Assembly (NCBI GenBank): GCA_963676565.1
Contig: OY781089.1
Location: 64,001-128,000, forward strand
Direction: 5' to 3'
Length of the DNA: 64,000 nucleotides
Origin: Halarcobacter sp.
Lineage (GTDB): Bacteria; Campylobacterota; Campylobacteria; Campylobacterales; Arcobacteraceae
Each line of letters opens with the position of its first letter. Positions within the stretch are counted from its first letter, which is position 1. The translations under genes and the position numbers were made by a program. The notes beneath the pieces are model-generated. The model did no database searches and was not told the DNA's origin. It saw only the letters and a list, made by a program, of their open reading frames with translations. This document shows, piece by piece, positions 32,777-57,259 of the stretch.

Positions 32777-33154
32777 TTAACTTTCTATTTTCTTTAACTC
32801 TTCATACTCTTCATCTGTAAAAATTCTAGACCTTGTTAAAAATTGATATCCTTCATCAATCTCAAGTGAAAAAGAGTTACCAAAGGCACCTTTTTCCTCT
32901 TTCACATCAACAATTATTTGAGAGTGTCTAAAATATTCAAACTGTTCATGATCAATAAAAAACTCTACACCACAAATTTCACCAAGTTTTACATTTCTAC
33001 TTGGTACATAAAAGTCAGCTTTTTCATAACACATTGGAGATGTTCCATCACAACAACCACCACTTTGATTAAATACTAATTCCCCATTTTTTTCAATTAA
33101 CATCTCAATAACTTTTTGTGCTTCAGGTGTAGCTATTACTCTTCTAATATCCAT
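32777..33154 (-). CDS. DUF779-family protein (aldehyde dehydrogenase associated)
   Basis: QSGGCCDGTSPMC, FSLE, RSRIF; directly downstream of the ALDH. Confidence 0.88.
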   Translation of the reverse strand: MDIRRVIATPEAQKVIEMLIEKNGELVFNQSGGCCDGTSPMCYEKADFYVPSRNVKLGEICGVEFFIDHEQFEYFRHSQIIVDVKEEKGAFGNSFSLEIDEGYQFLTRSRIFTDEEYEELKKIES

Positions 33155-33257
33155 AACTAATCCTTTGTAATTTTATAATTGCGGGAATTTGTAGAAAATC
33201 CCTTTAAATACAATTTTAGTTAATTTTATTTAAAGAGACTTGAGGTTAGAAAATTAA

Positions 33258-33304
33258 GGCCAGGGAGGCTGAGGAAAGTAAAAAATGGAGGGGCCTCCCT
33301 GGCC
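33258..33304 (-). terminator. GC-rich 12-bp stem with 23-nt C/U-rich loop after aldehyde dehydrogenase (terminator, stabiliser or sRNA)
   Basis: GGCCAGGGAGGC / GCCTCCCTGGCC; minus-strand tail TTAATTTT. Confidence 0.6.
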
Positions 33305-33326
33305 CGCTTTTAAGTTTTAATATCTA

Positions 33327-34820
33327 TTAAAAGAATCCTAAAGCATTTTTGCTGTAAGAAGTTAAGATATTTTTAGTATGTCTATAAGAGTTTAACATCA
33401 TCATGTGAGTTTCTCTACCGATACCAGATTTTTTGTATCCACCAAATGATGCATGTGATGGGTACATGTGGTAACAGTTAACCCAAACTCTACCAGCTTC
33501 AATTCCTCTAGAGAATTTATGTAATTGGTGCGCATCTCTTGACCATACACCTGAACCTAATCCGTAGATAGTATCATTTGCAATCTCTAATGCTTCATCT
33601 TCATCTTTAAATGTAGTTACTGCTAATACAGGTCCAAAAATCTCTTCTTGGAAGATTCTCATTTTATTGTGACCTTTGAAGATTGTTGGTTGAATATAGA
33701 ATCCATTTGGATTTACTTCAGACTCATAAGCATCTCCACCAATTAGACACTCAGCACCCTCTTCTTTACCAATTTTGATATATTCCATAATTTTTTCTTT
33801 TTGGTTAGAAGAACATTGAGCACCCATCATACACTCAGGATCTAATGGATTACCTAATTTAATAGCTGCAACTCTTTCAAGTACTCTTTCCATAAATGGC
33901 TCATAAATTGACTCTTGGATTAATGCTCTTGAAGGACAAGTACAAACCTCACCTGAGTTAAATGCGAATAATACAAGACCTTCAATTGCTTTATCGAAGA
34001 ACTCATCATCAGCATCCATAATTGACTCTAAGAAAATATTTGGAGATTTACCACCAAGTTCTAAAGTAGAAGGGATAATATTCTCAGTTGCATATTGCAT
34101 AATTAATTGACCAGTTGTAGTCTCACCTGTAAATCCTACTTTTTTAACATCTGGGTGAGTTGATAAGAATTTACCAATTTTTCCACCTGAACCATTAATA
34201 ATATTAACTGTACCAGCTGGTAATACTTCTTGAATAGCTTCCATCATTAATAAAATAGACATTGGAGTTGCACTCGCTGGTTTCATAACAACACAGTTAC
34301 CTGCTGCTAATGCAGGAGCTAATTTCCATGCAGCCATTAATAATGGGAAGTTCCATGGAATAATTTGAGCAACAACACCATATGGCTCATAAACCTCTTG
34401 AGAAATAGTATTTTCATCTAAATCAGCAACTGTACCAGCTTCTGATCTAATAACTGATGCAAAATATCTAAAATGATCAACAACTAAAGGAACGTCTGCT
34501 GCTAAAGTTTCTCTTACAGCTTTTCCGTTATCTAGTGTTTCTGCAACTGCTAAACTTTCTAATTTTGCTTCAATTGCATCAGCAACTTTATTTAACATAG
34601 TAGATCTTTCTACTACTGAAGTGTGTTTGTAAGATTCAAAAGCAGTTTTTGCAGCTTGAATTGCTAATTCAACATCTTCTTCATTTGATCTTGGAATTCT
34701 AGTTAATACTTCACCATCAACTGGAGAAATATTATCAAAATACTCACCACTTTTTGGAGCTACCCACTCTCCACCAATAAAGTTCTCATATTGAGGTTTA
34801 AATTCTGGTTTACTATACAT
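33327..34820 (-). CDS. aldB: NAD-dependent acetaldehyde dehydrogenase (AldB/ExaC type)
   Basis: IIPWNFP, FTGET, LELGGKSP, GEVCTC, EEIFGP; ATG at 34820 follows AAAGGA RBS, so the ORF track start is too early. Confidence 0.92.
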   Translation of the reverse strand: MYSKPEFKPQYENFIGGEWVAPKSGEYFDNISPVDGEVLTRIPRSNEEDVELAIQAAKTAFESYKHTSVVERSTMLNKVADAIEAKLESLAVAETLDNGKAVRETLAADVPLVVDHFRYFASVIRSEAGTVADLDENTISQEVYEPYGVVAQIIPWNFPLLMAAWKLAPALAAGNCVVMKPASATPMSILLMMEAIQEVLPAGTVNIINGSGGKIGKFLSTHPDVKKVGFTGETTTGQLIMQYATENIIPSTLELGGKSPNIFLESIMDADDEFFDKAIEGLVLFAFNSGEVCTCPSRALIQESIYEPFMERVLERVAAIKLGNPLDPECMMGAQCSSNQKEKIMEYIKIGKEEGAECLIGGDAYESEVNPNGFYIQPTIFKGHNKMRIFQEEIFGPVLAVTTFKDEDEALEIANDTIYGLGSGVWSRDAHQLHKFSRGIEAGRVWVNCYHMYPSHASFGGYKKSGIGRETHMMMLNSYRHTKNILTSYSKNALGFF

Positions 34821-34898
34821 ATCTTTTCCTTTATTTTTTAATTGAAAATAAATACTCAAAAGGTATCTATTTTTTGAATATTGAAATCTTACACGAGA

Positions 34899-34940
34899 AT
34901 TATAGCCTGAATTTAGCGATTGCGTAGCATTAACGTAGCA
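34899..34940 (-). promoter_or_regulatory. aldB promoter with four GCTA repeats at 11-bp period
   Basis: TAGC on + at 34903, 34914, 34925, 34936; TATAAT on - at 34904-34899. Confidence 0.65.
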
Positions 34941-35031: not shown

Positions 35032-36924
35032 ATGAAAACATATAACTACACATTTTTCAATAACAACTTAACTGATTTAATTGATTATAGTATATTTAAA
35101 GATAAAGAAAATGTTCTAATTCAAATATTTTCTGGTCATGATTCAAGCACATTGGAGTTAATTACAAAAACAGTAATGGATAATATTCCACAGGCAGTAT
35201 GTTTAGGGACAACTACCGATGGAGAGATATGTGAATCAAAAATCTCTACACTTAAAACAATTATATCAATTTCAATTTTTGATAATACATATTTAAAAGC
35301 TTATTATATGAAAGGGGATGACGCATTTAATATAGGATATGAGATTGCACAAAAAGTTATCACCGATAATACAAAGTTAATAATCACTTTTACCGATGGA
35401 ACTGGGACAAATGCTGAAGAGTATTTGAAAGGTATAGAAAAATATGATAATTCTATAATGGTATGTGGTGGTATGGCAGGAGATAATGGAGTATTTAAAC
35501 AAACCTTTATCTCTTTAGGAAAGCAAATCTATCCTAAAGGGTATATAGCAGTTTCACTTAACTCAGATATATTAAAAGTAACAAACGCGAGAAAGTTTGA
35601 TTGGGTTCCAATAGGTTTAGAGCATACAATAGATGAAGTTGATGGAAATAGAATTTATAAAATCTCGGGGATGAGTCCTTCTGAGTTTTATAAAAAATAT
35701 TTAGGTGAGAGTGTTGCGCAAACAGAGTTTCCTTTAATAGTTGAAAGAAATGGGATACCAACAGCAAGAGCAGTACTTGAACAGCACAGAGATGGAAGTT
35801 TAAGTTGTGGAGGAAATTTAAGAAAAGGTGATATAGTTAGACTTGGTTTTGGGGATGCAGAATCTATAATGAATAATCCACTTAGTGCTTTAGATACAAG
35901 TTTTGATCATCCAATTGAAACTTTTTTCTTATATTCTTGTATGGCAAGAAGAAGGTATTTAAGAGAATTAATAAAACTTGAAACACAACCTTTTGCAGTT
36001 ATTGCTCCAACTTCTGGATTTTTTACTTATGCAGAGTTTTTCCATAGAGATGGTCATAATGAATTATTAAATCAAACATTAACAGTAGTAGCATTAAGTG
36101 AACATGATAAAAAAGTTAATGCATTGGAAATTTATCCAGAGAAGAAAACAAAATCAAAAAAAGATGCTGCCTTTGCAAGAACTTTAAGATCTCTTACTCA
36201 CTTAGTACAAAAAAGTACAGATGATTATCAAGACCAATCAAAAAGTTTAAAGGAATCAGAACTTTATGCACAAAACCTGCTAACGTCACAAAAACAATTT
36301 TTAAAACATGCAGTTCATGAAACAAATACACCACTTTCAATAATAATGGCAAACATTGAATTATATGAAATGGAAAATGGTAAAAATCAATACTTATCAA
36401 ATATTGAAGTAGCTATGAAAAATCTTTTTTCTATATATGATGATTTAAGTTATTTAGTAAAAAAAGATCAAATAGATTACCCTGAACATAAAATTGATTT
36501 TAAAGATTTTGTTAGAAGTAGAGTTGAGTTTTTTAACCAAGTTGCAACTAAAGTAAAATCAAAATTTGTTTTTAAAGCACCAAAAGAACCTATGGTTTTA
36601 CATTTTAATGAATCTAAACTACAAAGAATAATTGATAACAATCTTACAAATGCCATAAAATACACTTATGAAAATGAAGATATTTATGTAACATTAAAAA
36701 AAGAAGGAACTCACTTTAAACTTATGGTTTCAAGCCATTCAAAAAAAATCCAAGATCCAGACAAAATCTTTAAAGAATATTATAGAGAAGAGAAATCAAA
36801 AGATGGATTTGGATTGGGATTAAATTTAGTAAAAAGAATTTGTGATGAAGAGGGTGTTGAAATATATTTAGAATCTAACGAATATTTCACATCATTTGTT
36901 TATCTATTTAAAGGGGAAAGATGA
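35032..36924 (+). CDS. Soluble FIST-domain sensor histidine kinase
   Basis: GTTTDGEI, GGMAGD, YSCMARR, GFFTYAEF, NQT (FIST); HETNTPL H-box, NAIKY, GFGLGL; no obvious TM. Confidence 0.88.
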   Translation: MKTYNYTFFNNNLTDLIDYSIFKDKENVLIQIFSGHDSSTLELITKTVMDNIPQAVCLGTTTDGEICESKISTLKTIISISIFDNTYLKAYYMKGDDAFNIGYEIAQKVITDNTKLIITFTDGTGTNAEEYLKGIEKYDNSIMVCGGMAGDNGVFKQTFISLGKQIYPKGYIAVSLNSDILKVTNARKFDWVPIGLEHTIDEVDGNRIYKISGMSPSEFYKKYLGESVAQTEFPLIVERNGIPTARAVLEQHRDGSLSCGGNLRKGDIVRLGFGDAESIMNNPLSALDTSFDHPIETFFLYSCMARRRYLRELIKLETQPFAVIAPTSGFFTYAEFFHRDGHNELLNQTLTVVALSEHDKKVNALEIYPEKKTKSKKDAAFARTLRSLTHLVQKSTDDYQDQSKSLKESELYAQNLLTSQKQFLKHAVHETNTPLSIIMANIELYEMENGKNQYLSNIEVAMKNLFSIYDDLSYLVKKDQIDYPEHKIDFKDFVRSRVEFFNQVATKVKSKFVFKAPKEPMVLHFNESKLQRIIDNNLTNAIKYTYENEDIYVTLKKEGTHFKLMVSSHSKKIQDPDKIFKEYYREEKSKDGFGLGLNLVKRICDEEGVEIYLESNEYFTSFVYLFKGER

Positions 36925-37583
36925 AAATTTTATTATTAGAAGATGATATTATGCTAAATGAGGCAATAACTCAATATCTTAGAACAGTAGGTCACTCTGT
37001 TCAATCTGTAAAAGATGGAGATGAGTGTCTAAAAAAATTAGATGAAGAAAAATTTGACCTTCTTGTTTTTGATATTAATGTTCCAAGTATTGATGGCCTT
37101 ACTATTTTAGAAGATTTACATAAAAAGAAAAGAATGGTACCAACTATTTTTATTTCTGCACTTATAGATATTGAAGATATCTCAAGGGCCTTTGATATTG
37201 GATGTCATGATTATTTAAAAAAACCATTTCACTTAAAAGAATTAAATCTTAGAATTGAAAAAATTCTAAAAACAAGAACTGCACCAATGAACCATAAAAG
37301 ATTATCAAAATCATACAGTTTTGATAGTGAAAGTATGACATTATATTTTAACAACGAACCACACATCTTACCCAAAAGACAACTTCAAATTATAGAACTA
37401 CTTACAAATAATAGAAGTTTAGTTTGTAACTATGATATGTTTAGGGATTACGTTTGGAATGACGACTTTATTGATAATGCAACAATTAGAGCAGAGGTAA
37501 ATAGAGTTAAAAAAGTTTTAAAAGAGGATTTTATTGTAAATGTTAGAGGTATTGGTTATATGGTTGAAAGACCTAGTTCTTAA
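36921..37583 (+). CDS. OmpR-family response regulator
   Basis: LLEDD, FDINVP, KKPF receiver; VRGIGY winged-helix tail. Confidence 0.92.
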   Translation: MKILLLEDDIMLNEAITQYLRTVGHSVQSVKDGDECLKKLDEEKFDLLVFDINVPSIDGLTILEDLHKKKRMVPTIFISALIDIEDISRAFDIGCHDYLKKPFHLKELNLRIEKILKTRTAPMNHKRLSKSYSFDSESMTLYFNNEPHILPKRQLQIIELLTNNRSLVCNYDMFRDYVWNDDFIDNATIRAEVNRVKKVLKEDFIVNVRGIGYMVERPSS

Positions 37584-37592: not shown

Positions 37593-38723
37593 TTAAGAAC
37601 AACAGGTTTGTTTTTCAATAAATTTTAAAGAGTTTTGTTTATTTCTATAAATAGGTTGACTATCACTTTTATTTGCATTCTCAACTATTTTTTTAACAAC
37701 TCCATGATAAGCTGATTTATCACAAACTGGATCTGCTTCATGCATATCTTGTGTTAATGCATATGCTTGGCATCTGCATCCACCAAAATCTTTCTCTTTT
37801 TCAGGACAAGATCTGCATGTTGGATTCATCCATTCATCACCTCTAAAAAAATTAAAAGCTTTTGATTCATACCAAATCTCTTTTACAGAAGACTCCTTTA
37901 CATTTGGAAAATCTATTGGTAAAGTATTTGCAGTATTACATGGAAGAGCTATTCCATCTGGATTAATTGTTAAAAAAGTTGTTCCCCATCCATTCATACA
38001 TGCCTTTGGTCTATTTTCATAATAATCAGGTACTACAAAAAATACTTTCATATCTTTTCTTTTTTCCCTATAAAAATTTGTTACTTCCATAGCCTTGTCA
38101 AGTTGTTCTTTACTTGGTAAAAGAGCATCAACATTTTCTAATGCCCACCCATAGTATTGAATATTTGCAATCTCTAAATAGTTTGCTCCAAGCTCATCAC
38201 AAAACTCAATTATCTCACCAACTTGCTCAATATTTTGTCTTGTGATACAAGTATTTATAATAAGTTGCATACCAAGTTCTTTTACCTCTTTTGCAAAGGC
38301 AATTTTATCTTTCATTGCTGATTTATTGTTTGTAATTAAAGTCATAGTATTTTCATCATGAGACTGAATACCTAATTGAACAGTTTTAAGTCCAGCTTCT
38401 TTTAACTTTTTTAAAACTCCCTTTTCACCACCTACACCAGAAGTGATTAAGTTTGTATAAAATTTTAAATCATTTGCATATCTTACTACATCAACAATAT
38501 CTTTATTTAGTAAAGGTTCACCACCTGAAATTCCTAATTGAACAGCCCCTAAAGCTCTAGTTTCATCTAAAACTTTAAACCAATCTTCTTTACTCATACC
38601 ATCTTTTGTATTTGCAAAATCTAATTGATTATAACAATAAGTACACTCTAAAGGGCATTTGTGAGTTAACTCTAAAAGTACCCACAAAGGTGGTTTAATC
38701 CCCGACTTTTCATTAGTTGACAT
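37593..38723 (-). CDS. pqqE: PqqA peptide cyclase, radical SAM/SPASM
   Basis: PLWVLLELTHKCPLECTYC, QYYGWA, CMNGWG, CRSC...DFGGCRCQA, DPVC. Confidence 0.96.
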   Translation of the reverse strand: MSTNEKSGIKPPLWVLLELTHKCPLECTYCYNQLDFANTKDGMSKEDWFKVLDETRALGAVQLGISGGEPLLNKDIVDVVRYANDLKFYTNLITSGVGGEKGVLKKLKEAGLKTVQLGIQSHDENTMTLITNNKSAMKDKIAFAKEVKELGMQLIINTCITRQNIEQVGEIIEFCDELGANYLEIANIQYYGWALENVDALLPSKEQLDKAMEVTNFYREKRKDMKVFFVVPDYYENRPKACMNGWGTTFLTINPDGIALPCNTANTLPIDFPNVKESSVKEIWYESKAFNFFRGDEWMNPTCRSCPEKEKDFGGCRCQAYALTQDMHEADPVCDKSAYHGVVKKIVENANKSDSQPIYRNKQNSLKFIEKQTCCS

Positions 38724-38982
38724 AATTTACCCACTTTCTATCAAAGGCTTCATCAAAAAATGCTTCCACATCTTTTTCTAATCCTGACATCTCAAACTTT
38801 TTTTCCAATGTTGAAACTATTTCATTAAAATTCTTAGTTCCATCACATTGGTTCATTATTTCACCAGCACTTTGATTTAGTTGAACCATACCTTCTGGGT
38901 ATAATAAAACAAAACAATCTTGTGCTTGCTCAAATTGTAATTGAAAGTGTTCATTCACTACAATTAATTTTTCTTTGTTCAT
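38713..38982 (-). CDS. pqqD: PqqA-binding chaperone
   Basis: [27 protein letters not shown]...CDG. Confidence 0.93.
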
Positions 38983-39709
38983 TTTCATAACCTTCAATAT
39001 TGAAATACGGTGGTCTTTTTAATTCGTATGCCAAATATAAAGCATCACACATAGTCCAAAGTATATCAAGTTTAAACTGTAAAATTTCAAAAGCTTTATT
39101 TTGAAGTTCAACTGTATTAAACTCTTCTAAAGTGATTGAAAGTCCATGTTGAACATCCCTTCTTGCTTCACTCAATCTTTTTTGGAAATATCTCAAACCT
39201 TTTGCTTCAATCCAAGGATAATTATCTGGCCATGTACTTAATCTTTGTTGGTGAATTTGAGGTGCAAACATCTCAGTTAAAGATGACATTGCAGCTTCTT
39301 TCCAAGGTCTTTGTTTTGCAAAGTTAATATAAGCATCTACTGCAAATTTAACTGATGGTAAAACATATTTATGAGAAATTAAATCCTCTTTATTTAATCC
39401 AACAGCTTCACCTAATTCAAGCCAAGCTTCAATTCCACCACCAACACTATCATGGTCAATAATTCTATCAATCCATTTTCTTCTATCTTCTAAAGGTGGG
39501 TTATTTGACATAATTGCTGCATCTTTAATTGGAATTGCTGTTTGATAATAAAATCTATTTGCTACCCAGCCTTGGATTTCCTCTTTTGTACAATCCCCTT
39601 GATACATTCTAATATGAAATGGATGGTGAATGTGATACATATCACCCATACCTCTTAACTTTGCTTCAAACTCTTCTTTACTTAGTAATTCACTCATTTT
39701 TTTTGTCAT
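38951..39709 (-). CDS. pqqC: Pyrroloquinoline-quinone synthase
   Basis: [39 protein letters not shown]. Confidence 0.96.
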
Positions 39710-39772
39710 TCTTCTTCTCCTTATTTAATGTCAAATTTTTTATTTTTTTATAAAAAGAAATAAATATATTCT

Positions 39773-40690
39773 TTATATATCTATTCTCATCCCATCATAA
39801 GAAACTTCAATCCCATGGGAAATAAGTTCTTTATATTCAGGATTTTCTTCATCTAAGATTGGATTTGTATTGTTAATATGAATTAATATTTTTCGTGGTT
39901 TTTCTAAAGTATCTAAAATTTTAATAAGCCCTTCTTCTCCACTTAAAGGGATATGCCCCATATCAGTGCCTAATTTAGTAGAAAACTTACCTTTTATCAT
40001 CTCATCATTTGTCCAAAGGGTTCCTTCTATTAAAAGAACATCTGCATTTCGCATCTCTTCAAAAACATGATCTTCCATAACCCCAAGACCAGGAAGATAA
40101 AACAATCTTTTTCCTGTATTTTTATTTACAACTGTAATTCCAATATTATCACCCTTTCTTGGATGATCTCTATGTGGTGAATATGGTGGTGCATTTGAAA
40201 TAAGTGCATGGGCATAAAACTCATATGAAGGCATCACTGGTATTTCAAATTTTGTAGTAGAATCTGGCAAGATTTCATGCCAAACAGTTCCTCCACCATC
40301 CCAATGTTGTAACATTTTCATAGTAGGAAATGATGAATTCAATTCTTCATTTACCTCTTTTGTACAATAAATTTGGTGAGGACAACCTTCCCTTAACATA
40401 AGTAAACCAGTTGTATGGTCTATTTGAGCATCGTTAAATACGATTGCTTTAATTTTAGTTTCTCTTTTTTTTGTTGGATGTAAAAAAGGTGAATTATGAA
40501 TTTGCTCTAAAATATCTGGGCTAGTATTAAGTAAAACCCAGTTCTCACCATCTTCACTAATAGTAATTGAACTTTGAGTTCTTTTTTTTATACTTTTTTT
40601 GCCTTCTCTGTAACCTTTACAATTGTCACAGTTACAATTAAATTGTGGTAAGCCACCACCTGCACCTGAACCTAGAACTTGAATCCTCAC
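39773..40690 (-). CDS. pqqB: PQQ biosynthesis protein PqqB
   Basis: LGSGAGGGLPQFNCNC, RTQSS, QIDHTTGLL, MGH, IHINNTNP; GTG at 40690 after AAAGGA. Confidence 0.95.
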   Translation of the reverse strand: MRIQVLGSGAGGGLPQFNCNCDNCKGYREGKKSIKKRTQSSITISEDGENWVLLNTSPDILEQIHNSPFLHPTKKRETKIKAIVFNDAQIDHTTGLLMLREGCPHQIYCTKEVNEELNSSFPTMKMLQHWDGGGTVWHEILPDSTTKFEIPVMPSYEFYAHALISNAPPYSPHRDHPRKGDNIGITVVNKNTGKRLFYLPGLGVMEDHVFEEMRNADVLLIEGTLWTNDEMIKGKFSTKLGTDMGHIPLSGEEGLIKILDTLEKPRKILIHINNTNPILDEENPEYKELISHGIEVSYDGMRIDI

Positions 40691-40751
40691 AATATATCCT
40701 TTCATTTTTCCTCAAAGAAAAAAATTCCCACATTTTTTTGTTTGAAGAAAA

Positions 40752-40773
40752 GACTAGAGCAAAAGCTCTAGTC
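40752..40773 (-). terminator. Hairpin between pqqA and pqqB
   Basis: GACTAGAGC-N4-GCTCTAGTC followed on minus strand by TTTTCTT. Confidence 0.75.
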
Positions 40774-40785
40774 AAGTTTAAAAAA

Positions 40786-40860
40786 TTACTTTGTACAAAT
40801 GTACATAGTAACTTCAAAACCAAATCTGTTATCTACGAATGTAGGTGTTTCCCATTTCAT
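40786..40860 (-). CDS. pqqA: PQQ precursor peptide, 24 aa (MKWETPTFVDNRFGFEVTMYICTK; not in ORF track)
   Basis: W-x-x-P...R-F-G-F-E-V-T-M-Y with ExxxY core; AAGGAGGT RBS; directly upstream of pqqB. Confidence 0.95.
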   Translation of the reverse strand: MKWETPTFVDNRFGFEVTMYICTK

Positions 40861-40896
40861 TTTAGTTACCTCCTTTTTTGATTTTCAGATTAACTA

Positions 40897-42678: not shown

Positions 42679-42723
42679 GCTATCTCCTTTTATAATTGTC
42701 AGACTGAAAATTGTCTTAAGAGA

Positions 42724-42755
42724 AGTATATATGAGAAAAGTAGCAACAGTTTAGC
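42724..42755 (-). promoter_or_regulatory. pedH promoter with GCTA box
   Basis: GCTA-AACTGTT-GCTA-CTTTTCTCATA-TATACT on minus strand. Confidence 0.75.
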
Positions 42756-43533: not shown

Positions 43534-43535
43534 GG

Positions 43536-44258: not shown

Positions 44259-44270
44259 TTTACAACTTTA

Positions 44271-45242: not shown

Positions 45243-45263
45243 TAATTCCCTTTTAATAAAAAT

Positions 45264-45683: not shown

Positions 45684-45711
45684 GCATAATCCTTTTTGTA
45701 ATTTATCTTTA

Positions 45712-45798: not shown

Positions 45799-45825
45799 TT
45801 TACAAAATATATTTTAAGGATAGAA

Positions 45826-47425: not shown

Positions 47426-47509
47426 AAACTTTCACCTTAATTAAAATTTTTTTTAAATTGCTATTTAAATATATAATAATATAATGATATTATCTATAGG
47501 GAGAGAATT

Positions 47510-49636: not shown

Positions 49637-51357
49637 TGAAACCTAAACCAATTAAAAATAGTATAAAAAATAAAATCATAATTCAATTTACCCTCATATT
49701 ATCTGTTTTTTTGTTACTAATTTCATTTTCAATTGGTTATTTATTTATTAAAAACACAGAATCCCATGCACAAGATTTATTAAAAAATAGAGCCTTATTA
49801 ATAGAAGAAAAAATACAAGAAAGACTTTATTACCTAATTGAGCAAACATCACTTCTTTCAAAAAACTCACTTATGGTTAATTCTTTAATTGATGATGATA
49901 ATAAAGAGGAATACCTTTTACCACTAGCTTCAAATTTTATGGAAGATAAAAATGTAAAAGACCTAAATATCATAGATTTTGATGGTGAGATAATTTTTAA
50001 AACTGCTAAAAATGTACCTAAATATAGTAAATCAATATATATTAGAAATGCACTAGCACTAGGACAAACAACATATTATTTAGAGAAAAATGAAAACAAA
50101 TTTATTGTTGTTTCACCTGTTAAATATTATGAAACAACCCAAGGGGCTTTAATAGCTACTTTTAATCTTGAAAAAATCTTACGAAAATATATAGTTAATT
50201 CAAATGATGAATATATTGAGATACTAAATACTAAAAATGATAAACTTTTATACACAAATAACCACGATGAAAATAAAAAGTACTATTCTTATAGTTTAAA
50301 AAATCAAAACTTATCACTTTTTGATGAATTAAATATTACATTAAATATTGGAAAACTAGAATCTGCATATCTATTTCCCATACAAGATGCTGTAAAAAAA
50401 GTACTTATTATGAGTTTTATTCTAATCTTGATTGGAACCTTACTCTCATATTTATTAGCTGAATCAATCACTAAACCTATTATAGAATTATATAAAAAGA
50501 TAAACAATAATGAGTTTCATGAAAGATATAAGCCTTTAGGCACAAATGATGAATTAGAAGTATTATCATTTGCATTCCATGAAAAAGTAAAACAATTAAA
50601 TCAATTTAAAAATGAAGAGTTAGAGAAACAAAAACTTTTACTAGAACAGTCAAAAATGGCCTCATTAGGTGAGATGATTGGAAATATTGCCCATCAATGG
50701 AGACAACCTTTATCTGTTATATCAACTGCTTCAAGTGGTTTAAAAATGAAACAAGAATATGGGATTTTAGAAGAACATGAGATGTATTCTGTTCTTGATT
50801 CTATTAATGAAAACACCCAATACTTATCAAAAACAATTGATGACTTTAGAAATTTTATTATTGGGAAAAGAGAAAAGAAACAATTTAACTTAAGTAAACA
50901 AATTGATAGTTTTTTATCTTTAATGATGGGAAGTATAAAAACACATGAAATCAATATAGTACGTAAAGAACAAACAGATATAGAGATTAATGGATACCCA
51001 AATGAATTAACCCAATGTTTAATGAATATAATTAATAACTCAAAAGATGCCTTTGAAGAAAAGGGAATAAAAGAAAAATATATTTTTATAAAAACATATA
51101 CTAAAAATTCTTCAATTTTTATAGAAATTAAAGACAATGCAGAAGGTATTGATGAAGATATTATCCTAAAAATATTTGAACCTTATTTTACAACAAAACA
51201 TAAATCCAGAGGTACAGGATTAGGACTTAGTATGACATATAGATTGATTACTGAAGGGATGAAGGGTAATATAAAAGTAAGAAACACAACTTTTAATTAT
51301 GAAAAGAAAACCTATAAAGGGGCAGAATTTATTATTACTTTACCCCCTGTAGATTAG
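49636..51357 (+). CDS. Membrane sensor histidine kinase (periplasmic domain, HAMP)
   Basis: Two TMs, ITKPI HAMP, GEMIGNIAHQWRQP, NSKDA, PYFTTK, GTGLGL; no adjacent regulator. Confidence 0.9.
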   Translation: MKPKPIKNSIKNKIIIQFTLILSVFLLLISFSIGYLFIKNTESHAQDLLKNRALLIEEKIQERLYYLIEQTSLLSKNSLMVNSLIDDDNKEEYLLPLASNFMEDKNVKDLNIIDFDGEIIFKTAKNVPKYSKSIYIRNALALGQTTYYLEKNENKFIVVSPVKYYETTQGALIATFNLEKILRKYIVNSNDEYIEILNTKNDKLLYTNNHDENKKYYSYSLKNQNLSLFDELNITLNIGKLESAYLFPIQDAVKKVLIMSFILILIGTLLSYLLAESITKPIIELYKKINNNEFHERYKPLGTNDELEVLSFAFHEKVKQLNQFKNEELEKQKLLLEQSKMASLGEMIGNIAHQWRQPLSVISTASSGLKMKQEYGILEEHEMYSVLDSINENTQYLSKTIDDFRNFIIGKREKKQFNLSKQIDSFLSLMMGSIKTHEINIVRKEQTDIEINGYPNELTQCLMNIINNSKDAFEEKGIKEKYIFIKTYTKNSSIFIEIKDNAEGIDEDIILKIFEPYFTTKHKSRGTGLGLSMTYRLITEGMKGNIKVRNTTFNYEKKTYKGAEFIITLPPVD

Positions 51358-51752
51358 TATTTCCCAAACTCTTTGTAAGTTTTATCTTCAAAAATTATAA
51401 ATACTGTTTTAGGGTTTTTATCGTTTTCATAAGCTGGAAGAGATAATCCAATTGCATTTTTAGGTTTTTCCTTCAAAAAGTCTTTTATAGCACGTGAGGG
51501 AACATTCCCTTCAAAAACATAATCTCCCATTAGTGAAGTATTACAAGATTGAATATCATAAGGAATTCCTATTTGTCTTTTTAAATTTTTTACATTCATA
51601 ACTGTAACAACATCAACCTCTTTTGCTACTTTTTCCATCTCTATAAACCAAGATTTAGGGCAAGTGCTTGTTGGTGGTTGAAAAACTTGTAGTTTAGATT
51701 CACTGGCAAAAAGTGAAATTGCCAACAAACAAAAAGCTAAAATTTTCATCAT
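51354..51752 (-). CDS. Exported DUF411/CopG-like protein with altered metal ligands
   Basis: PTSTCPKSW, GIP...QSCNT, YVFEGNVP, GLSLP follow the DUF411 pattern. Confidence 0.6.
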   Translation of the reverse strand: MMKILAFCLLAISLFASESKLQVFQPPTSTCPKSWFIEMEKVAKEVDVVTVMNVKNLKRQIGIPYDIQSCNTSLMGDYVFEGNVPSRAIKDFLKEKPKNAIGLSLPAYENDKNPKTVFIIFEDKTYKEFGKY

Positions 51753-52447
51753 AATTCTCCTTTTAAAATATTTGGATATTTTTCCAATAGATTATTTTTT
51801 ATTTGATCAATATTTTTAATATCAAAACTTTGATTATTAGGGTTATTAAACTCTAAAACTATTTTTGCAGGTTTACTAGAAAGAAATAAAATTCTATTGG
51901 AAAATAAAATTGCTTCACTAATATCATGAGTTACTAAAACAACAATTGGATTAAACTTATTACATAGTTTTAAAAACTCTTTTTTTAATTCTTGGGAAGT
52001 TGGAAAATCCAAAGATATAAAAGGTTCATCTAAAAAAATTACCTCTGGTTGGTTTATAAAAGCTCTAGCTAGTGCAACTCTTCTTTTCATACCACCAGAT
52101 AAAGCCTTTGGAAACTTATCTAAAACATCTTCTAATGCAACTAATTTTAAAATATCATTTATCTCATCTAAATCTTTAGATCTTGAAACTAATAAAAGAT
52201 TTTCTTTGATACTAAGCCAAGGTAATAATCTATCATCTTGAAACATAAATGATATATTTTTATAAGGCATTGAAATATCACCTTTGTAATCAGTTTCTAA
52301 ATTTGCCAATAAATTTAAAAAAGTGCTTTTACCACAACCACTAGGACCAACAATTGAAATGAACTCTTGTTCTTTAATTTTAAATTCAATATCTTCTAAT
52401 ACCTTTATTTCATTAAAACTTTTGTTTTGAATATTTATATTTATCAT
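51749..52447 (-). CDS. NitT/TauT-type ABC ATPase
   Basis: GPSGCGKST, FQDDRLLPW, LSGGMKRR, LDEPF, VTHD. Confidence 0.88.
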   Translation of the reverse strand: MININIQNKSFNEIKVLEDIEFKIKEQEFISIVGPSGCGKSTFLNLLANLETDYKGDISMPYKNISFMFQDDRLLPWLSIKENLLLVSRSKDLDEINDILKLVALEDVLDKFPKALSGGMKRRVALARAFINQPEVIFLDEPFISLDFPTSQELKKEFLKLCNKFNPIVVLVTHDISEAILFSNRILFLSSKPAKIVLEFNNPNNQSFDIKNIDQIKNNLLEKYPNILKGEL

Positions 52448-52448
52448 T

Positions 52449-53183
52449 TTATTTCCATTCCAACATCTTATTTTCTAAAGGTTTTAAAATAGCCATCTCT
52501 ATAAACATAACAATAAAAATAAAAGCTAAAGAATAAGCTAATATAGAAGTTATATCAAAAAATTGGAAAAACATTGAGATTTTAAATCCTATACCATCAC
52601 TTCTCCCAAGTAATTCAACAACTAAAACTATTTTCCAAATTAAAGACAAAGATAATCTAGCAGAAGCCATCATATATGGATAAATTTGAGGTAAAAAAAC
52701 TTTGAAAAACACTTGTTTTTTTGGAACCTTATAAACTTTTGCTAAATCCATATATTTTGACTCAATTGCCCTAGTCCCTTCCCTTATATTAACAACTACT
52801 ATTGGAACTTTATTTATAATTACAGCTAGAAGTGCTGCAAAATCAGTTAATCCAAACCAAATATAACAAATAACAATTACTACTAAAGCTGGAATATTTA
52901 AACCTAAAACTAATAAAAAATCAAAGATATCATCTATTTTTTTTGATATTCCCATTATAATTCCAAAAAATATTCCAATTATCATAGTGATAAAAAATGT
53001 TATTACAACCCTAAATAGTGTAATCTTTAAATCATCTAATAATTCCCCATCTACTAAATGTTCAAATAGTTTTATACCTATATCAACAGATGAAGGGAAA
53101 ACTTGAGATGCAAGGACTATTGAAGAGGCTTGCCATATGATAATAAAAGCACAAATTGATAATAATCTAGTTTGTAACAACAC
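52449..53183 (-). CDS. NitT/TauT-type ABC permease
   Basis: NIPALV, WFG, NKVP, WKIVLVVELLG. Confidence 0.85.
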   Translation of the reverse strand: MLLQTRLLSICAFIIIWQASSIVLASQVFPSSVDIGIKLFEHLVDGELLDDLKITLFRVVITFFITMIIGIFFGIIMGISKKIDDIFDFLLVLGLNIPALVVIVICYIWFGLTDFAALLAVIINKVPIVVVNIREGTRAIESKYMDLAKVYKVPKKQVFFKVFLPQIYPYMMASARLSLSLIWKIVLVVELLGRSDGIGFKISMFFQFFDITSILAYSLAFIFIVMFIEMAILKPLENKMLEWK

Positions 53184-53201
53184 TTTTTCCTAATTTTTAT
53201 T

Positions 53202-54161
53202 TTACTGATTAGTTTCCCAAAAAGTTGCAGGGTCTAACTCTTTGCTATTTTTAACTAATTTTTTTCCACCTTGTTTTTGTAATACTTTAAATATTTTTTT
53301 TGAATCTTCGATGTTTTTTTCATCAAATTTAAGTATCACTCCATTTTTATAGCCCTCTTTTAATGAGTTAAATGTTACTTCATCTTTTACTTTCATCAGT
53401 GGTTTTATTCTATCCCATTCTTTATCATCTTCTAACAAGATTTTTTTAGCACTTTTACTTGCATTTATAAATGAATCATATAATCTTGGATCCATGAGAG
53501 CTAAATCTCTTCTAAATGTCCAACCAATTAAAGGTATATCTTCATTAATTCCAAAACTTTTAAAAACCTCTTTAATTTCAATAATAGGTCTTGCTCCTTT
53601 TGCCTTTGCTTTTGCATTAAAATGCCAAAAGTTCAGCGCTCCATCTAAAGAACCATCAAGTACTTTTTTAAGTAATATGGGAGGAGCAGCAAAGGTTGGA
53701 TTAATAATATCTTTAAAATCTTTGCCATATTTTAATTTACTATATGCCCTTAAGATAAGCCAAGTTTTATCAACAGGTCCTCCTGCAACTCCAATATTTT
53801 TCCCTTCTAAATCTAATAAAGTTTTAGCATTACTGTTTTTTCCAAGGTATAAAGTCCCCGTTGCCTTAGAATAAGGGTAAAGTGTATAATCTCCCCCATT
53901 TGCCCTTTGAGTATTTACCCAAACCCAATCAGTAACTATAATATCAACACTTCCAGATTGAAGGGCTATTGATGTAGCATTTTTTGAAGCTAGTTTAACA
54001 ACTTCAAGTTCAAAACCATTTTTAATATCAAGTTTATTATGTTTTAAAACATCTAATTCCCAATTAACTGTTCCAAATGCTAAAACACCTACTTTTAATT
54101 TTTCCAAAGCATATAAATTTGTAAACAAAAAACAAATTGTTAAAAATATGATTTTAAACAT
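53202..54161 (-). CDS. NitT/TauT-type ABC substrate-binding protein
   Basis: Signal peptide; FGTVNWEL, DWVWV, GVAGGPVDKTW, NFWHF. Confidence 0.82.
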   Translation of the reverse strand: MFKIIFLTICFLFTNLYALEKLKVGVLAFGTVNWELDVLKHNKLDIKNGFELEVVKLASKNATSIALQSGSVDIIVTDWVWVNTQRANGGDYTLYPYSKATGTLYLGKNSNAKTLLDLEGKNIGVAGGPVDKTWLILRAYSKLKYGKDFKDIINPTFAAPPILLKKVLDGSLDGALNFWHFNAKAKAKGARPIIEIKEVFKSFGINEDIPLIGWTFRRDLALMDPRLYDSFINASKSAKKILLEDDKEWDRIKPLMKVKDEVTFNSLKEGYKNGVILKFDEKNIEDSKKIFKVLQKQGGKKLVKNSKELDPATFWETNQ

Positions 54162-54187
54162 CTATCTACCTTTTAATTATTTTTTAT

Positions 54188-54272
54188 ATTGTATATCAAT
54201 TAAGTAGCATCAATTTAGCATAATAAAAGATTTTTTAATTGCTATAATCAAGCTATAAAAACACTTTATAAT
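54188..54272. promoter_or_regulatory. Back-to-back promoters, each with a GCTA box
   Basis: Minus: GCTA-AATTGAT-GCTA-CTTAATTGATA-TACAAT (54219-54188); plus: GCTA-TAATCAA-GCTA-TAAAAACACTT-TATAAT (54241-54272). Confidence 0.75.
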
Positions 54273-54305
54273 TCCAACATGCAAAAATTTCGCAAAAGGA
54301 TATAC

Positions 54306-54725
54306 ATGAATAAAATCGAAAAATTAACACTTGCAGTTTTGTTTTCTGCAATAACTGCATTTGGGCATGGAAGTGTTACACCACAAAAAGTTGACACAAC
54401 AGGTTTAGAACAATTAGGTGATACTTGGGTATCAGAAAATCCATATAGTACTGATAATGCAAGAGCTGTAGAGATTGGAAGATCTGGATATAGTGAAAAC
54501 TGTGCAAGATGTCATGGACTTGATGTTATCTCTGGTGGTATTGCTCCTGATTTAAGAGAGTTAGATAAGTTTGAAGATGAATACTTCTTAGGAAAAGTAT
54601 TAAGTGGAGTTACAAGAAATGGTAATGTTTATATGCCATCATTTGCTGAAGTTTTAAGTCAAGAAGCAATTTGGGCAATTAGAACATATATCATGGATAG
54701 AAGAGCAAAAGACGGTATAGAGTAA
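54306..54725 (+). CDS. pedF: Cytochrome c550 (PedF/ExaB type)
   Basis: HGSVTPQ.VDT, ENPY, CARCHG, SGGIAPDLR, YMP, SQEAIWAIR; AAGGA RBS favours ATG at 54306. Confidence 0.9.
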   Translation: MNKIEKLTLAVLFSAITAFGHGSVTPQKVDTTGLEQLGDTWVSENPYSTDNARAVEIGRSGYSENCARCHGLDVISGGIAPDLRELDKFEDEYFLGKVLSGVTRNGNVYMPSFAEVLSQEAIWAIRTYIMDRRAKDGIE

Positions 54726-54729
54726 TATT

Positions 54730-55599
54730 ATGAAAATTCTTAGATTATTAGTTTTATTTGCACTTTTGATAGTTTTTGCAAAAGCAAGAAGCATTGAAGA
54801 GATTCAAGAAAGTGGTTATATAACAATAGCTGTTTACGAAGATTTTCCACCTTACTCATTTACAGAAAACAATGAGTTAAAAGGGATTGATGTAGATTTA
54901 GGAAAACTACTTGCAAAATCTCTAAAAGTAAAAGCTAAATGGCAATTAACAGGCTCTGATGAAACTTTAGCTGATGATCTAAGAATTAATATTTGGAAGG
55001 GTAATCTAATTCATAAAAACTATGCAGACGTAATGTTTAGAGTTCCATACGATTATGATTATTTAAGATTAAGAGATAAACAAACAGGTGAACTTCAAAC
55101 AGATATGGTTTCTATTAAAGGGCCATATCATAGTGAAAAATGGGTTATAGCAACACACAAGGATAAAATTCCAAAGATTAATACTTTAGGAATTTTTGCT
55201 TACCATACTATAGGTGTAGAGTTAGATACCCTTCCAGATAATCATTTAACAGGATTTGCAAGAGGTTTAATTAATAAAAATGTTAAACACTATTTCCACT
55301 TTAAAGATGCAATAAAAGATTTTAAAGAGGGAAAAATTGATGCAATTGCTGGATTAAAATCCCAATTAGAGTATCTATTAGATTTTAATAACAATAAAGA
55401 TAAGTTTTATATGACTAGTAAAATTCCACAAATAAAATCACACTGGGATATTGCCACAGCAGTTCACACTAGTTATAGACCATTAAGTTATCATATTGAT
55501 GGCTTAATATCTGAAAATTACGAGAATGGTAATATTAAAAAAATATTTGAAAAATATGGAGTCAATTACTTACCTCCAATAGCAAGAACACAACAATAA
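54730..55599 (+). CDS. Family-3 periplasmic binding protein (PedG-like)
   Basis: VYEDFPPYS, GIDVDL, DDLR, ADVMFRVPYD; directly after cytochrome c550. Confidence 0.78.
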   Translation: MKILRLLVLFALLIVFAKARSIEEIQESGYITIAVYEDFPPYSFTENNELKGIDVDLGKLLAKSLKVKAKWQLTGSDETLADDLRINIWKGNLIHKNYADVMFRVPYDYDYLRLRDKQTGELQTDMVSIKGPYHSEKWVIATHKDKIPKINTLGIFAYHTIGVELDTLPDNHLTGFARGLINKNVKHYFHFKDAIKDFKEGKIDAIAGLKSQLEYLLDFNNNKDKFYMTSKIPQIKSHWDIATAVHTSYRPLSYHIDGLISENYENGNIKKIFEKYGVNYLPPIARTQQ

Positions 55600-55613
55600 A
55601 ATAAGGAGTTGTC

Positions 55614-56357
55614 ATGAAAAGTATACTCATTTTCGCTACATTAATTCTAACAATGTTAAACCTAGAAGCAAAGAATCCTATAGTATCTCCCACTTTTGAT
55701 GATATTATCAAAATTACTATTGGCGAAGATGAGTATACCTTTGATGACAAAAATGTCCAAGTAAAGGTACCCTCTTTTGCTGATAACCCTGTTCAAGTTC
55801 CCATTTTTGTAGATGCCTCAAAAATTAAGAATCCTAAAAAAATGATTCTTTTTGCTGATTTGAATCCTATTCCAGTTATTTTAACTATGACACCAAAAGA
55901 TTTTCTACCAGTTATCTCAACAAATATAAAAGTTGCCCAAGAAACTCCTTTAAGAGCTTTAGTTTTAGATGAAAATAATCTATGGCATGTTGGAAGCGCA
56001 AACATCAATAGTAATGGTGGAGGTTGCGATGTAACAAGTTTAGCAGCTGCGAATGGAAATGTTGCAGAAAATATAGGGAAAAGTAAAGGGAAAATATTTG
56101 ATAAAAAAGATCAAAAAAGAGTTAAATTCTCAATATTTCATCCTATGGAAACTGGCTTAGTTTTTGGGGCTAGCTCATTTTTTATAAATAAAATAGAAAT
56201 TAAAGATGAGAATAACAAGTTATTAACTGTTTTAGATACAAGCGCAGCAATTAGTGAAAATCCAAGAATTACTTTAGAAACAAAAAAAGAGTTTAAAGAA
56301 TTAAATATCAACTTTTTGGATACTGATGCAAATAATTTTGAGTTAAATATAAAATGA
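55614..56357 (+). CDS. Quinoprotein-associated fused SoxY/SoxZ-like carrier
   Basis: P.FA.NP.QVP, DLNPIP, TPLRA, GGGC, HPMETG, ISENP. Confidence 0.8.
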   Translation: MKSILIFATLILTMLNLEAKNPIVSPTFDDIIKITIGEDEYTFDDKNVQVKVPSFADNPVQVPIFVDASKIKNPKKMILFADLNPIPVILTMTPKDFLPVISTNIKVAQETPLRALVLDENNLWHVGSANINSNGGGCDVTSLAAANGNVAENIGKSKGKIFDKKDQKRVKFSIFHPMETGLVFGASSFFINKIEIKDENNKLLTVLDTSAAISENPRITLETKKEFKELNINFLDTDANNFELNIK

Positions 56358-57259
56358 AAATTTTATTTTTAGCAATAATATTTTTTAATTCACTTTTTGC
56401 CTTTGAATATAAGCTAAAGCCAGAAAAGCTAGATGAAAATAGCTACTATTTTTATGGAAAAGAGGAGTATTTTTCAAAGGAAAATGGTGGAGATATTGCA
56501 AACACTGCTTTTATAATCACTAAAAATTCTGTTATAGTAATAGATACAGGAACAACAGTTGATTATGCAAATGCTATGAAAAAAGAGATTTCAAAGCTTA
56601 CTAAAAATCCTATAAATTTTGTAATAAATACACACCACCATCCTGATCATTTTTTAGGAAATAAAGCCTTTAAAGATGCTAAAATTTATGCAACAGAGCA
56701 TACAATTGAAGATATAAAATTAAATGGTGAAAAATATGTTTCAAATATGGTAAACCTAATAGGTGAAGCTGCTTATTCAACTAGAGCTAAAGTTCCAAAT
56801 AAATTACTTACAACAAAAAAACTAGTCTTAGATGGGTATGAATTAGATATTTTATACTTAGATGGTCATACAAAAAGTGATATAGCTATACTAGATAATA
56901 AAACAAAAATACTCTATGCTTCTGATTTAGTTTTTAACCACAGAGCCCTAGCAACACCCCATGCAAATTTAAAAAAGTGGATTTTGGCATTAAAAGAATT
57001 AAAAAAACTTGATTTTAAAACTTTAGTTCCAGGGCATGGAAAAGTGACTTTCTCAAAAAATGTTATTGATAAAGATATCAGATACTTAAAGTTTTTGGAT
57101 AAAACATTGAAAGAAGCTATAGAAAATGGACTTGATACCTTTGAAATTTTGGAACAAGAAATTCCAGAGGATATTAAAAATTATTCTATGTTTGAAGAAG
57201 AGTATGAAAGAAGTATTATAAATCTATACAAAAAGTATGAACTGCAACTCTCTTATTAA
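56354..57259 (+). CDS. Exported MBL-fold zinc metallohydrolase (SoxH-related, quinoprotein-associated)
   Basis: NGGDIAN, IDTG, THHHPDHFLGN, GHT, SDL, VPGHG. Confidence 0.82.
   Translation: MKILFLAIIFFNSLFAFEYKLKPEKLDENSYYFYGKEEYFSKENGGDIANTAFIITKNSVIVIDTGTTVDYANAMKKEISKLTKNPINFVINTHHHPDHFLGNKAFKDAKIYATEHTIEDIKLNGEKYVSNMVNLIGEAAYSTRAKVPNKLLTTKKLVLDGYELDILYLDGHTKSDIAILDNKTKILYASDLVFNHRALATPHANLKKWILALKELKKLDFKTLVPGHGKVTFSKNVIDKDIRYLKFLDKTLKEAIENGLDTFEILEQEIPEDIKNYSMFEEEYERSIINLYKKYELQLSY

Follow-up and report, generated by a model that had tools for sequence, protein, structure and literature searches.

A predicted lanthanide-type alcohol oxidation cluster in Halarcobacter, probably of Pseudomonadota descent and under native regulators

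Work on lanthanide (Ln)-dependent alcohol oxidation has dealt with Pseudomonadota and a small number of other groups. In Pseudomonas putida, the four-gene ATP-binding cassette (ABC) set PedA1A2BC is required at nanomolar lanthanum (La), and its deletion raises the La requirement about 100-fold (excerpt of PMC6839425). In Methylorubrum extorquens, according to an excerpt of PMC7391723, growth with La requires the homologues lutE and lutF, a lutC mutant has only a small growth defect, and mutation of a leucyl aminopeptidase gene impairs growth with La; for this peptidase, the authors suggest a role in processing of proteins or of pyrroloquinoline quinone (PQQ). Here we describe a gene cluster resembling these systems in Halarcobacter sp. 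(Campylobacterota; Arcobacteraceae), located in a 64,000-nucleotide stretch, hereafter the window, that comprises bases 64001 to 128000 of a single-contig 3.34-Mb genome (GCA_963676565.1, contig OY781089.1; G000 in our genome comparison). A full-text literature search found no paper on PQQ-dependent alcohol dehydrogenases (PQQ-ADH) or lanthanide use in Arcobacter or Campylobacterota.

It is likely that the cluster specifies a complete periplasmic ped/exa-type system for oxidizing alcohols to acids, together with a Lut-type lanthanide uptake set, derived from Pseudomonadota and placed under a FIST-domain kinase and an OmpR-type regulator. In the mechanism that we propose, a lipid-anchored PedH would oxidize alcohols with PQQ and a light lanthanide, its electrons would pass to cytochrome c550 (PedF) and on to a cbb3 oxidase, and ExaC would convert the aldehyde to the acid. 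PqqABCDE would make the PQQ, which a PqqT-type ABC importer may recapture, and the lanthanide would be handled by PedA1, PedA2, PedB, and PedC together with an acidic cupredoxin of the LutC family. The block of about 20 kb from the pqq genes to the metallohydrolase gene, of Pseudomonadota descent, would have entered an early Arcobacteraceae ancestor, become fully ameliorated, and been lost repeatedly since; it would adjoin a resident exaC-DUF779 unit controlled by the FIST kinase and OmpR-type regulator.

All 64 open reading frames (ORFs) of at least 90 amino acids in the window were scanned against Pfam, and the 25 in the block were also scanned against NCBIfam, where 11 families exceeded their curated cut-offs (Table 1). 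Leftmost are the minus-strand genes for a DUF779 protein and an ExaC-type aldehyde dehydrogenase, followed on the plus strand by those for the FIST-domain histidine kinase and the OmpR-type regulator. A long minus-strand run then carries orf139, pedA2, pedB, pedC, pedH, and pqqA, pqqB, pqqC, pqqD, and pqqE, and divergent from it lie pedA1, a gene for a 151-residue protein, a DctP/Peripla_BP_6 fusion gene, and a dCache kinase gene. To the right, a minus-strand ABC operon ends in a DUF411 gene, and then come pedF and the genes for a PedG-like protein, a SoxYZ-like protein, and a metallohydrolase.

The dehydrogenase is an eight-bladed PQQ propeller of the methanol/ethanol family by its matches to TIGR03075 and to the P. 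putida PedH structure 6ZCW, with which it shares 70% identity (E = 2.6e-268, residues 44 to 592). It has WDFDG, as does 6ZCW, whereas the calcium (Ca)-type ExaA (1FLG) has WDFSG at the aligned site, and it retains the vicinal CC, GGEFG, and NPAPWN. The extra Asp, which lies two residues past the catalytic Asp and is Ser in Ca-type ExaA, binds lanthanide (excerpt of 10.1101/2020.02.25.964783), and by this signature the enzyme is predicted to be of the lanthanide-dependent type. The lipoprotein signal motif L-I-S/T-G-C is present in 12 of 16 Arcobacteraceae Ln-type PedH sequences and in none of the three Ca-type sequences or the six readable outgroup N-termini. The pqqABCDE set is whole, including a PqqA with the E-x3-Y motif, and no M16 protease of the pqqF/G type was found in the Pfam scan of the window. 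The PedG-like protein shows 24 to 40% tblastn identity to the same-position gene in Pseudomonadota loci, and the cbb3 oxidase subunit FixO is encoded in the genome. Contigs from RNA libraries of three studies, about 94 to 96% identical, fall on pedH and on pedF-pedG; they stem from relatives and may hold DNA. Four RNA runs gave little or no cover on pedC to pedA1, on the DctP-fusion/dCache sensor genes, and on much of the PqqT-type operon, which weighs neither way. In a metatranscriptome paper, part of the aldB transcripts are assigned to Arcobacter (PMC7284936). Within positions 40706 to 40785, directly 3' of pqqA and ahead of pqqB, there is a stem-loop, GACTAGAGC ... GCTCTAGTC. One salt-marsh RNA run had a very deep bin over pqqA/pqqB, to which no listed contig could be traced; stem-loop and bin together fit an abundant short pqqA transcript.

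Adjoining pedH are a binding protein, a YVTN propeller, an ATPase, and an ABC-2 permease gene, the four members of PedA1A2BC/LutABEF. The original prediction, a note made from the sequence alone, had stated that P. putida needs this set at low lanthanide levels, in agreement with the excerpt of PMC6839425. In the genus, pedA1, pedA2, and the LutC-like orf139 co-occur with the Ln-type, not the Ca-type, enzyme. The orf139 protein has 491 relatives, and sequence searches of Pfam, NCBIfam, and the PDB returned nothing usable for it. Across 33 aligned members of its family, the acidic motifs DGSxE and EFD-D-EG are invariant. Its structure model (predicted local distance difference test score, 84) is an all-beta cupredoxin fold, with copper nitrite reductase and laccase domains as top Foldseek matches (E = 7e-6; template modeling score, 0.5 to 0.6). 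The His/Cys/His/Met ligands of blue copper proteins are missing, since the 33 members contain no Cys and no conserved His; as modeled, orf139 is thus a cupredoxin-fold protein without copper ligands. Of 35 metagenome loci that are 5 kb or longer, 28 have the family amid ped/lut genes, typically in the order pedA1-pedA2-orf139-pedB-pedC, and two Methylorubrum genomes other than AM1 have lutA-lutB-[orf139 relative]-[143-residue ORF]-lutE-lutF, so that by gene order in these species orf139 appears to occupy the lutC position. Homology to LanD was rejected, LanD being a disulfide-stabilized three-helix bundle (PMC11551332). The secreted orf151 is kept 3' of pedA1 across Arcobacteraceae clusters; its likeness to DUF302 is a lead only, and its PDB matches were at chance level and were dismissed.

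The regulator gene always adjoins the kinase gene in relatives, DUF779 lies 3' of exaC in every exaC-bearing relative, and the kinase-regulator-exaC-DUF779 unit stands beside the methyltransferase gene in at least seven genus genomes without the ped block; the idea that the regulators are bound to the ped block alone was rejected, since the pair stays with exaC in those genomes. The kinase, which has no hydrophobic segment, has full-length relatives with 50 to 59% identity in other Campylobacterales families. The pair again adjoins exaC-DUF779 in three loci of such families, and none of five genomes with such kinase relatives has a PQQ-ADH above cut-off. Because the unit thus occurs in other families without PQQ-ADH, the pair is, on its distribution, native to the order. 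The native style that the original prediction gave to the regulators is supported for the FIST/OmpR pair. The second sensor pair, the DctP-fusion and dCache kinase, is a strain-level insert: it is present in two of nine genus Ln-type clusters (G000 and G014) and absent from G010, whose PedH is 97% identical. The aldB and DUF779 genes of that prediction are both present, with ExaC the best NCBIfam match of the former, whose start was corrected: although the ORF is open to 34967, the start is most likely Met50 at 34820, because Met50 has an AAAGGA ribosome-binding site ahead of it and residue 52 is the first that the ExaC model matches. Between exaC and DUF779, at 33155 to 33326, a GC-rich perfect 12-bp inverted repeat (GGCCAGGGAGGC ... 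GCCTCCCTGGCC) stands in surroundings of 28% GC and may be a terminator or attenuator separating the two genes.

Promoter alignment revealed tandem units GCTAWAWT-N3 with a period of 11 bp, and OmpR/PhoB-family regulators usually bind tandem direct repeats of that period. Across the 3.34-Mb genome there are three copies of the dimer GCTAWAWTNNNGCTAWAW, against 0.54 expected, each in a cluster promoter (exaC, orf139, and pedF); of 100 window shuffles, one reached three matches. Less exact copies are directed toward pedA1 and the PqqT-like gene. In relatives, a dimer with at most one mismatch lies upstream of exaC in 20/20 cases, pedA1 in 16/16, pedF in 15/16, the PqqT-like gene in 13/14, and orf139 in 7/8, and less constantly upstream of pedH (13/18), pedA2 (10/16), and pqqB (2/18). 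Genus loci totaling 612,520 bases contain 63 exact dimers, of which 62 fall within 400 bp of cluster genes; the loci of genomes without exaC have none. Since the tandem repeats of the exaC promoter recur in the divergent promoters of the ped block, and since such repeats are usual for regulators of this type, we lean toward the view that the exaC unit and the ped set form one regulon of the adjacent FIST/OmpR pair, whose regulator is predicted to bind the repeat. The promoters share this repeat with the neighboring native pair, which suggests that an acquired pathway has come under a control circuit of the host itself. The rest of the genome contains 11 one-mismatch dimers, two of which were inspected, one before a pyridine-nucleotide oxidoreductase gene and the other, at G000:C1:1478250, just upstream of a gene for an 849-residue methyl-accepting chemotaxis protein with a CZB domain; such copies may be due to chance, and the chemoreceptor copy could either link chemotaxis to the regulon or be chance as well.

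The ancestry of the block was examined with a tree of 104 PQQ-ADH sequences, from the 80 best public loci and the genus loci, rooted on Ca-type paralogues. The 17 Arcobacteraceae Ln-type PedH rows, two of which are the same contig, all form one clade with a Shimodaira-Hasegawa-like approximate likelihood ratio test (SH-aLRT) support of 100. This clade is sister to 23 rows from Alteromonadaceae and Pseudomonadaceae (98) and nested within Pseudomonadota, the alpha- and betaproteobacterial groups branching outside both; three Arcobacteraceae Ca-type sequences form a separate clade beside Pseudomonas PedE. Of the 25 genus genomes, 11 have a PQQ-ADH, as do 57 of the 184 family genomes (10 of 22 genera), whereas 16 genomes, one from each of 16 other families of the order, gave no match; identity bands assign 52 of the family genomes to the Ln-type and 5 to the Ca-type only. 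The GC content of positions 37593 to 57259 is 28.7% versus 28.4% for the genome, and their tetranucleotide distance is less than that of 85.5% of genome windows. In the genus, the block is always bounded by the regulator gene and pepA2, with the same methyltransferase and pyruvate kinase genes lying a few genes away, and in G021 pepA2 directly adjoins the regulator without the block. Parsimony on a four-gene species proxy tree gave four changes with the block present at the root. Recent transfer was rejected, with no compositional signal, mobility genes, or tRNA in the window. Concatenated block trees largely match the species tree (G002 and G018 are recovered together). Purely vertical descent within the genus was rejected, as the right half refuses G003 and G004 together (approximately unbiased test, p = 1e-5; group chosen post hoc), and exchange within the family is likely, because G007 has a highly diverged block and G004 falls with the G000 clade in its right half.

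These results bear out the old acquisition that the original prediction had put forward, in that PedH forms one nested clade, the composition is that of the genome (in agreement with the AT-richness that had been claimed), the site is fixed, and the 16 other families gave no match; the comparison of synteny and presence across Arcobacteraceae that it had proposed as a check points the same way. Its comparison of gene trees with the species tree came out mostly concordant, but with the conflicts of G007 and G004. The rewiring to host regulators that it had suggested agrees with the occurrence of the FIST/OmpR-exaC unit elsewhere without PQQ-ADH and with the repeat shared by the exaC and ped promoters. 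Both dehydrogenase types are held by L047 (an uncultured Arcobacteraceae), G171, G172, G184, and G186, a co-occurrence that, by analogy with PedE/PedH, is possibly a lanthanide-switch arrangement; in L047, the Ca-type gene lies between pedA2 and pedB. The Ca-type clusters of G001 (L025/L026) and G015 (L029) occupy the same chromosomal site and retain the pqq genes, pedF, pedC, pedB, orf151, the SoxYZ-like and hydrolase genes, and pepA2, without pedA1, pedA2, orf139, the PedG-like gene, or the PqqT-type operon.

Other explanations have to be set against these readings. The PedA1A2BC-like set might be an ABC-2 exporter or a device for quinoprotein assembly, with the metal reaching PedH without it, rather than a lanthanide importer. 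NCBIfam places PedC and PedB among exporters of the ABC-2/DrrAB type, a periplasmic PedH creates no obvious need for cytoplasmic import (a point also made in the excerpt of PMC6839425), and the retention of pedB and pedC without pedA1 and pedA2 in G001 and G015 does not fit a permease and ATPase that serve lanthanides only. We nevertheless regard an exporter or assembly device as quite unlikely, given the raised La requirement of the P. putida deletion (PMC6839425), the need for lutE and lutF in M. extorquens (PMC7391723), and the association of pedA1, pedA2, and the LutC-like gene with the Ln-type rather than the Ca-type enzyme in the genus. The repeat, too, could be something other than the site of the adjacent OmpR-type regulator, either the site of another factor or a duplicated extended -10-like element (GCTATAAT), with the pair controlling only exaC or something else. 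Its unit does hold TATAAT-like letters, the binding of the regulator is inferred, and three kinase-regulator-exaC loci in two other families lack the dimer at up to one mismatch, so that the motif is not tied to the pair everywhere. An unrelated repeat is still rather unlikely: the dimer is confined to cluster promoters in a 28% GC genome rich in -10 boxes, the 11-bp spacing is the architecture usual for OmpR/PhoB sites, the FIST/OmpR pair is the only constantly adjacent regulator gene pair, and in a further family two loci carry exact or near-exact dimers immediately upstream of the orthologous kinase gene.

An origin of the cluster within Campylobacterota, with later passage to Pseudomonadota, is very unlikely, and so is a recent arrival in the present strain as a mobile island. 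In favor of such readings are its spread through 57 of 184 family genomes and its patchiness in the genus (11 of 25), but the Arcobacteraceae rows make up one branch nested among those of alpha-, beta-, and gammaproteobacteria, 16 other families of the order gave no match, and the window holds no mobility genes or tRNA around a block of genomic composition at a fixed site. Against a lanthanide-linked, Pseudomonadota-derived system under the FIST/OmpR pair weigh, besides the dimer-free loci and the pedB/pedC misfit, several further points: ExaC, PedB, and the PedG-like protein score under their curated cut-offs; the PedH tree is a quick search of the 80 best public loci with SH-aLRT only, and the species tree has four genes; the G007 and G004 blocks depart from pure descent; the repeat pattern was defined after the promoters had been inspected; the RNA contigs come from relatives, not the present strain, with possible DNA carry-over; and what is known of the system in Arcobacter comes from sequence. 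On balance, we still consider such a system the probable one.

Table 1. Features of the cluster, in window coordinates; paired figures are match score versus cut-off
Feature	Position	Strand	Basis
DUF779 protein	32777-33154	-	PF05610, E 2e-36, 125 vs 25 bits
ExaC-type NAD aldehyde dehydrogenase (aldehyde to acid)	33327-34820	-	NF050026 837 vs 900; Aldedh E 1e-157
Four tandem 11-bp units, exaC/FIST-kinase divergent region	34896-34939	-	exact dimer 34900-34917
FIST-domain histidine kinase, predicted cytoplasmic	35032-36924	+	FIST_N, FIST_C, HisKA, HATPase_c
OmpR/PhoB-family response regulator	36921-37583	+	Response_reg, Trans_reg_C
pqqE	37593-38723	-	NCBIfam equivalog, 467 vs 381 bits
pqqD	38713-38997	-	NCBIfam equivalog, 107 vs 101 bits
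pqqC	38951-39709	-	NCBIfam equivalog, 332 vs 240 bits
pqqB	39773-40705	-	NCBIfam equivalog, 376 vs 245 bits
pqqA, 24-residue PQQ precursor peptide	40786-40860	-	24-codon ORF, E-x3-Y motif
PedH-type PQQ alcohol dehydrogenase, predicted lanthanide dependent	40897-42678	-	TIGR03075, 784 vs 480 bits; lipobox LISGC
pedC permease	42751-43533	-	TIGR03861 346 vs 241
pedB ATPase	43536-44258	-	TIGR03864 290 vs 302, below cut-off
pedA2 YVTN propeller	44271-45242	-	TIGR03866 504 vs 287
orf139, secreted 139-residue protein, LutC-position family	45264-45683	-	first gene of operon
Exact dimer, orf139/pedA1 divergent promoter region	45726-45743	-	motif match
pedA1 (lutA-type) periplasmic binding protein	45826-46977	+	TIGR03863 416.5 vs 413.6
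orf151, secreted 151-residue protein, DUF302-like (lead only)	46970-47425	+	Pfam E 0.024; Atlas score 0.89, 191 shared features
Membrane-anchored DctP + Peripla_BP_6 fusion	47510-49636	+	Pfam domains
dCache histidine kinase	49636-51357	+	Pfam domains
Diverged DUF411/CopG-like secreted protein	51354-51752	-	Pfam DUF411; alignment to PDB 6WIS
ABC ATPase	51749-52447	-	nitrate/sulfonate/taurine type (NCBIfam)
ABC permease	52449-53183	-	nitrate/sulfonate/taurine type (NCBIfam)
PqqT-like binding protein	53202-54161	-	PDB 9B1U, E 4.6e-52
Dimers, pqqT-like/pedF divergent region	54202-54258		exact 54241-54258(+); 2-mismatch 54202-54219(-)
pedF cytochrome c550	54279-54725	+	TIGR04494 185 vs 122; CxxCH
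PedG/XoxJ-like binding protein	54730-55599	+	place after pedF; TIGR03871 26.8 vs 212
SoxYZ-like carrier	55614-56357	+	TIGR04557 155 vs 140
Relay metallohydrolase	56354-57259	+	TIGR04558 360 vs 300
pepA2, second M17 leucyl aminopeptidase	57284-58705	-	Peptidase_M17 E 3e-107

Every gene that the original prediction had listed between 32777 and 57259 was found, mostly above the curated family cut-offs; the end at 57259 encloses them all, but the functional unit extends to 58705, with pepA2. The absences that it had claimed were likewise confirmed for the window, whose 64 ORFs contain no GerE/LuxR domain of a NarL/LuxR-type regulator, no TonB receptor, no integrase or transposase, and no EF-hand lanmodulin. 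Genome-wide, the seven TonB-receptor matches all lie outside the window, and the single GerE match is at 1.90 Mb. Lanmodulin is a small protein with four EF hands; the sole EF-hand ORF of the genome encodes a secreted 127-residue protein (G000:C1:2293285-2293668, minus strand) with two EF-hand matches, a number of hands that speaks against a likeness to lanmodulin. It is flanked by TonB-dependent receptor genes at 2284654-2288395 and 2301787-2303880. Elsewhere in the window, two full-length genes for 198-residue AhpC/TSA peroxiredoxins, at 11458-12054 (minus) and 31111-31707 (plus), lie 19 kb apart with near-identical Pfam scores and are likely a recent duplicate.

The second ABC system that the original prediction had listed, under a heading that names candidate metal uptake, is present, and its binding protein is homologous to PqqT over the full length (residues 20 to 314 versus 3 to 297 of 9B1U). 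PqqT is the periplasmic PQQ-binding protein of M. extorquens, in which K142 clasps PQQ and T41 contacts it (excerpt of PMC11331073). With a hand-counted numbering offset of 27, both residues have retained equivalents here (GTV on GTA and DKT on DKN), and the equivalent of N143 is Thr. Because of this whole-length homology and the retained T41 and K142 equivalents, the operon is best read as a candidate PQQ uptake or salvage transporter rather than one for metals. Sets homologous to these three genes are neighbors of PedH in seven non-Arcobacter loci (Azospirillum, a Comamonadaceae bacterium, and Ensifer) and adjoin several metagenomic lut/ped operons.

The last gene of that operon encodes a CopG-like protein without the ligands of CopG (DUF411), that is, CxCC and two His. 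In alignment with 6WIS, CGCC is replaced by STCP and both His by Asn (SCHT by SCNT and EGHVP by EGNVP), a pattern common to all 15 cluster-linked copies, and a canonical-scoring copy is located elsewhere in the genome. Beyond the metallohydrolase gene, pepA2 belongs to the cluster, the housekeeping M17 copy being at genome position 1634897. Of the 57 family genomes with a PQQ-ADH, 52 have at least two M17 matches, compared with 8 of the 127 without, a cross-count of matches rather than strict copy numbers among relatives that are not independent, and in many genera an extra copy lies 5 to 24 kb from the dehydrogenase gene. The cluster-linked copy has an in-frame TAA in three genomes (G007:C6:106588-108009, G187:C75, and G181:C329), possibly reflecting pepA2 decay in some lineages. 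G179 and G180, of family genus g36, have five and three M17 matches, partly in tandem, and no PQQ-ADH match.

A bolder and doubtful extension would have Arcobacteraceae run a minimal, self-contained lanthanide system without TonB receptor, lanthanophore, or lanmodulin. Periplasmic metal would be handled by the LutC-family cupredoxin, through its EFD-D-EG and DGSxE carboxylates, and by the His-to-Asn CopG-like protein, with soft copper ligands swapped for hard oxygen ligands; the M17 peptidase would finish PQQ maturation, and the cytoplasmic FIST kinase would sense the aldehyde or acid product and switch the set on.

About 3 in 10 sampled Arcobacteraceae species carry the cluster, in a family common in coastal water, sediment, sewage, and animals. 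As nearly all proteins tied to lanthanide use in model organisms are encoded on one 26-kb piece of DNA with a simple predicted control circuit, the cluster offers a convenient system for studying the roles of the LutC-type, SoxYZ-like, hydrolase, and PqqT proteins, and for asking how cells without a dedicated outer-membrane receptor get lanthanides and how a transferred pathway becomes wired into the regulators of its recipient.

Compared with the ped genes of P. putida KT2440, the cluster has the same enzyme type, with 70% identity to 6ZCW and the lanthanide-binding Asp. An excerpt of PMC12997753 describes there the same four-gene ABC set, an aldehyde dehydrogenase (PedI) and pqq genes nearby, and, as the original prediction had noted, the same run of cytochrome c550 (pedF), pedG, SoxYZ-like (PP_2677), and hydrolase (PP_2678) genes by pedH. 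Unlike P. putida, the present genome has no Ca-type PedE partner, and Pfam and NCBIfam scans of the window found no LuxR-type PedR1/PedR2, PedS sensors, pentapeptide PedD, rhodanese PP_2666, or porin; in place of the P. putida regulators, the cluster has the FIST kinase and OmpR regulator with 11-bp repeats. Beyond the P. putida set, it includes a lipoprotein PedH, the LutC-like cupredoxin, the PqqT-type ABC operon, the diverged CopG-like protein, and a dedicated M17 peptidase, all in one compact 26-kb stretch. Of the lut genes of M. extorquens AM1, lutA, lutB, lutE, and lutF correspond to pedA1, pedA2, pedB, and pedC, the orf139 family is shared with Methylorubrum, and PqqT and the leucyl aminopeptidase needed for normal Ln-dependent growth (excerpt of PMC7391723) have their counterparts in the second ABC binding protein and pepA2; the cluster differs in lacking the TonB receptor LutH, LanM, LanD, and LutG and in having an ethanol-type PedH/ExaF enzyme, not XoxF. 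In P. aeruginosa exaABC, a PQQ ethanol dehydrogenase, cytochrome c550, and ExaC, the top NCBIfam match here, make up one pathway, with a Ca-dependent ExaA (WDFSG, 1FLG) whose type occurs in G001, G015, and one further Arcobacteraceae genome and is absent from the window. The system is of a known kind, and what is new is the phylum, the control circuit, and the compact accessory gene set.

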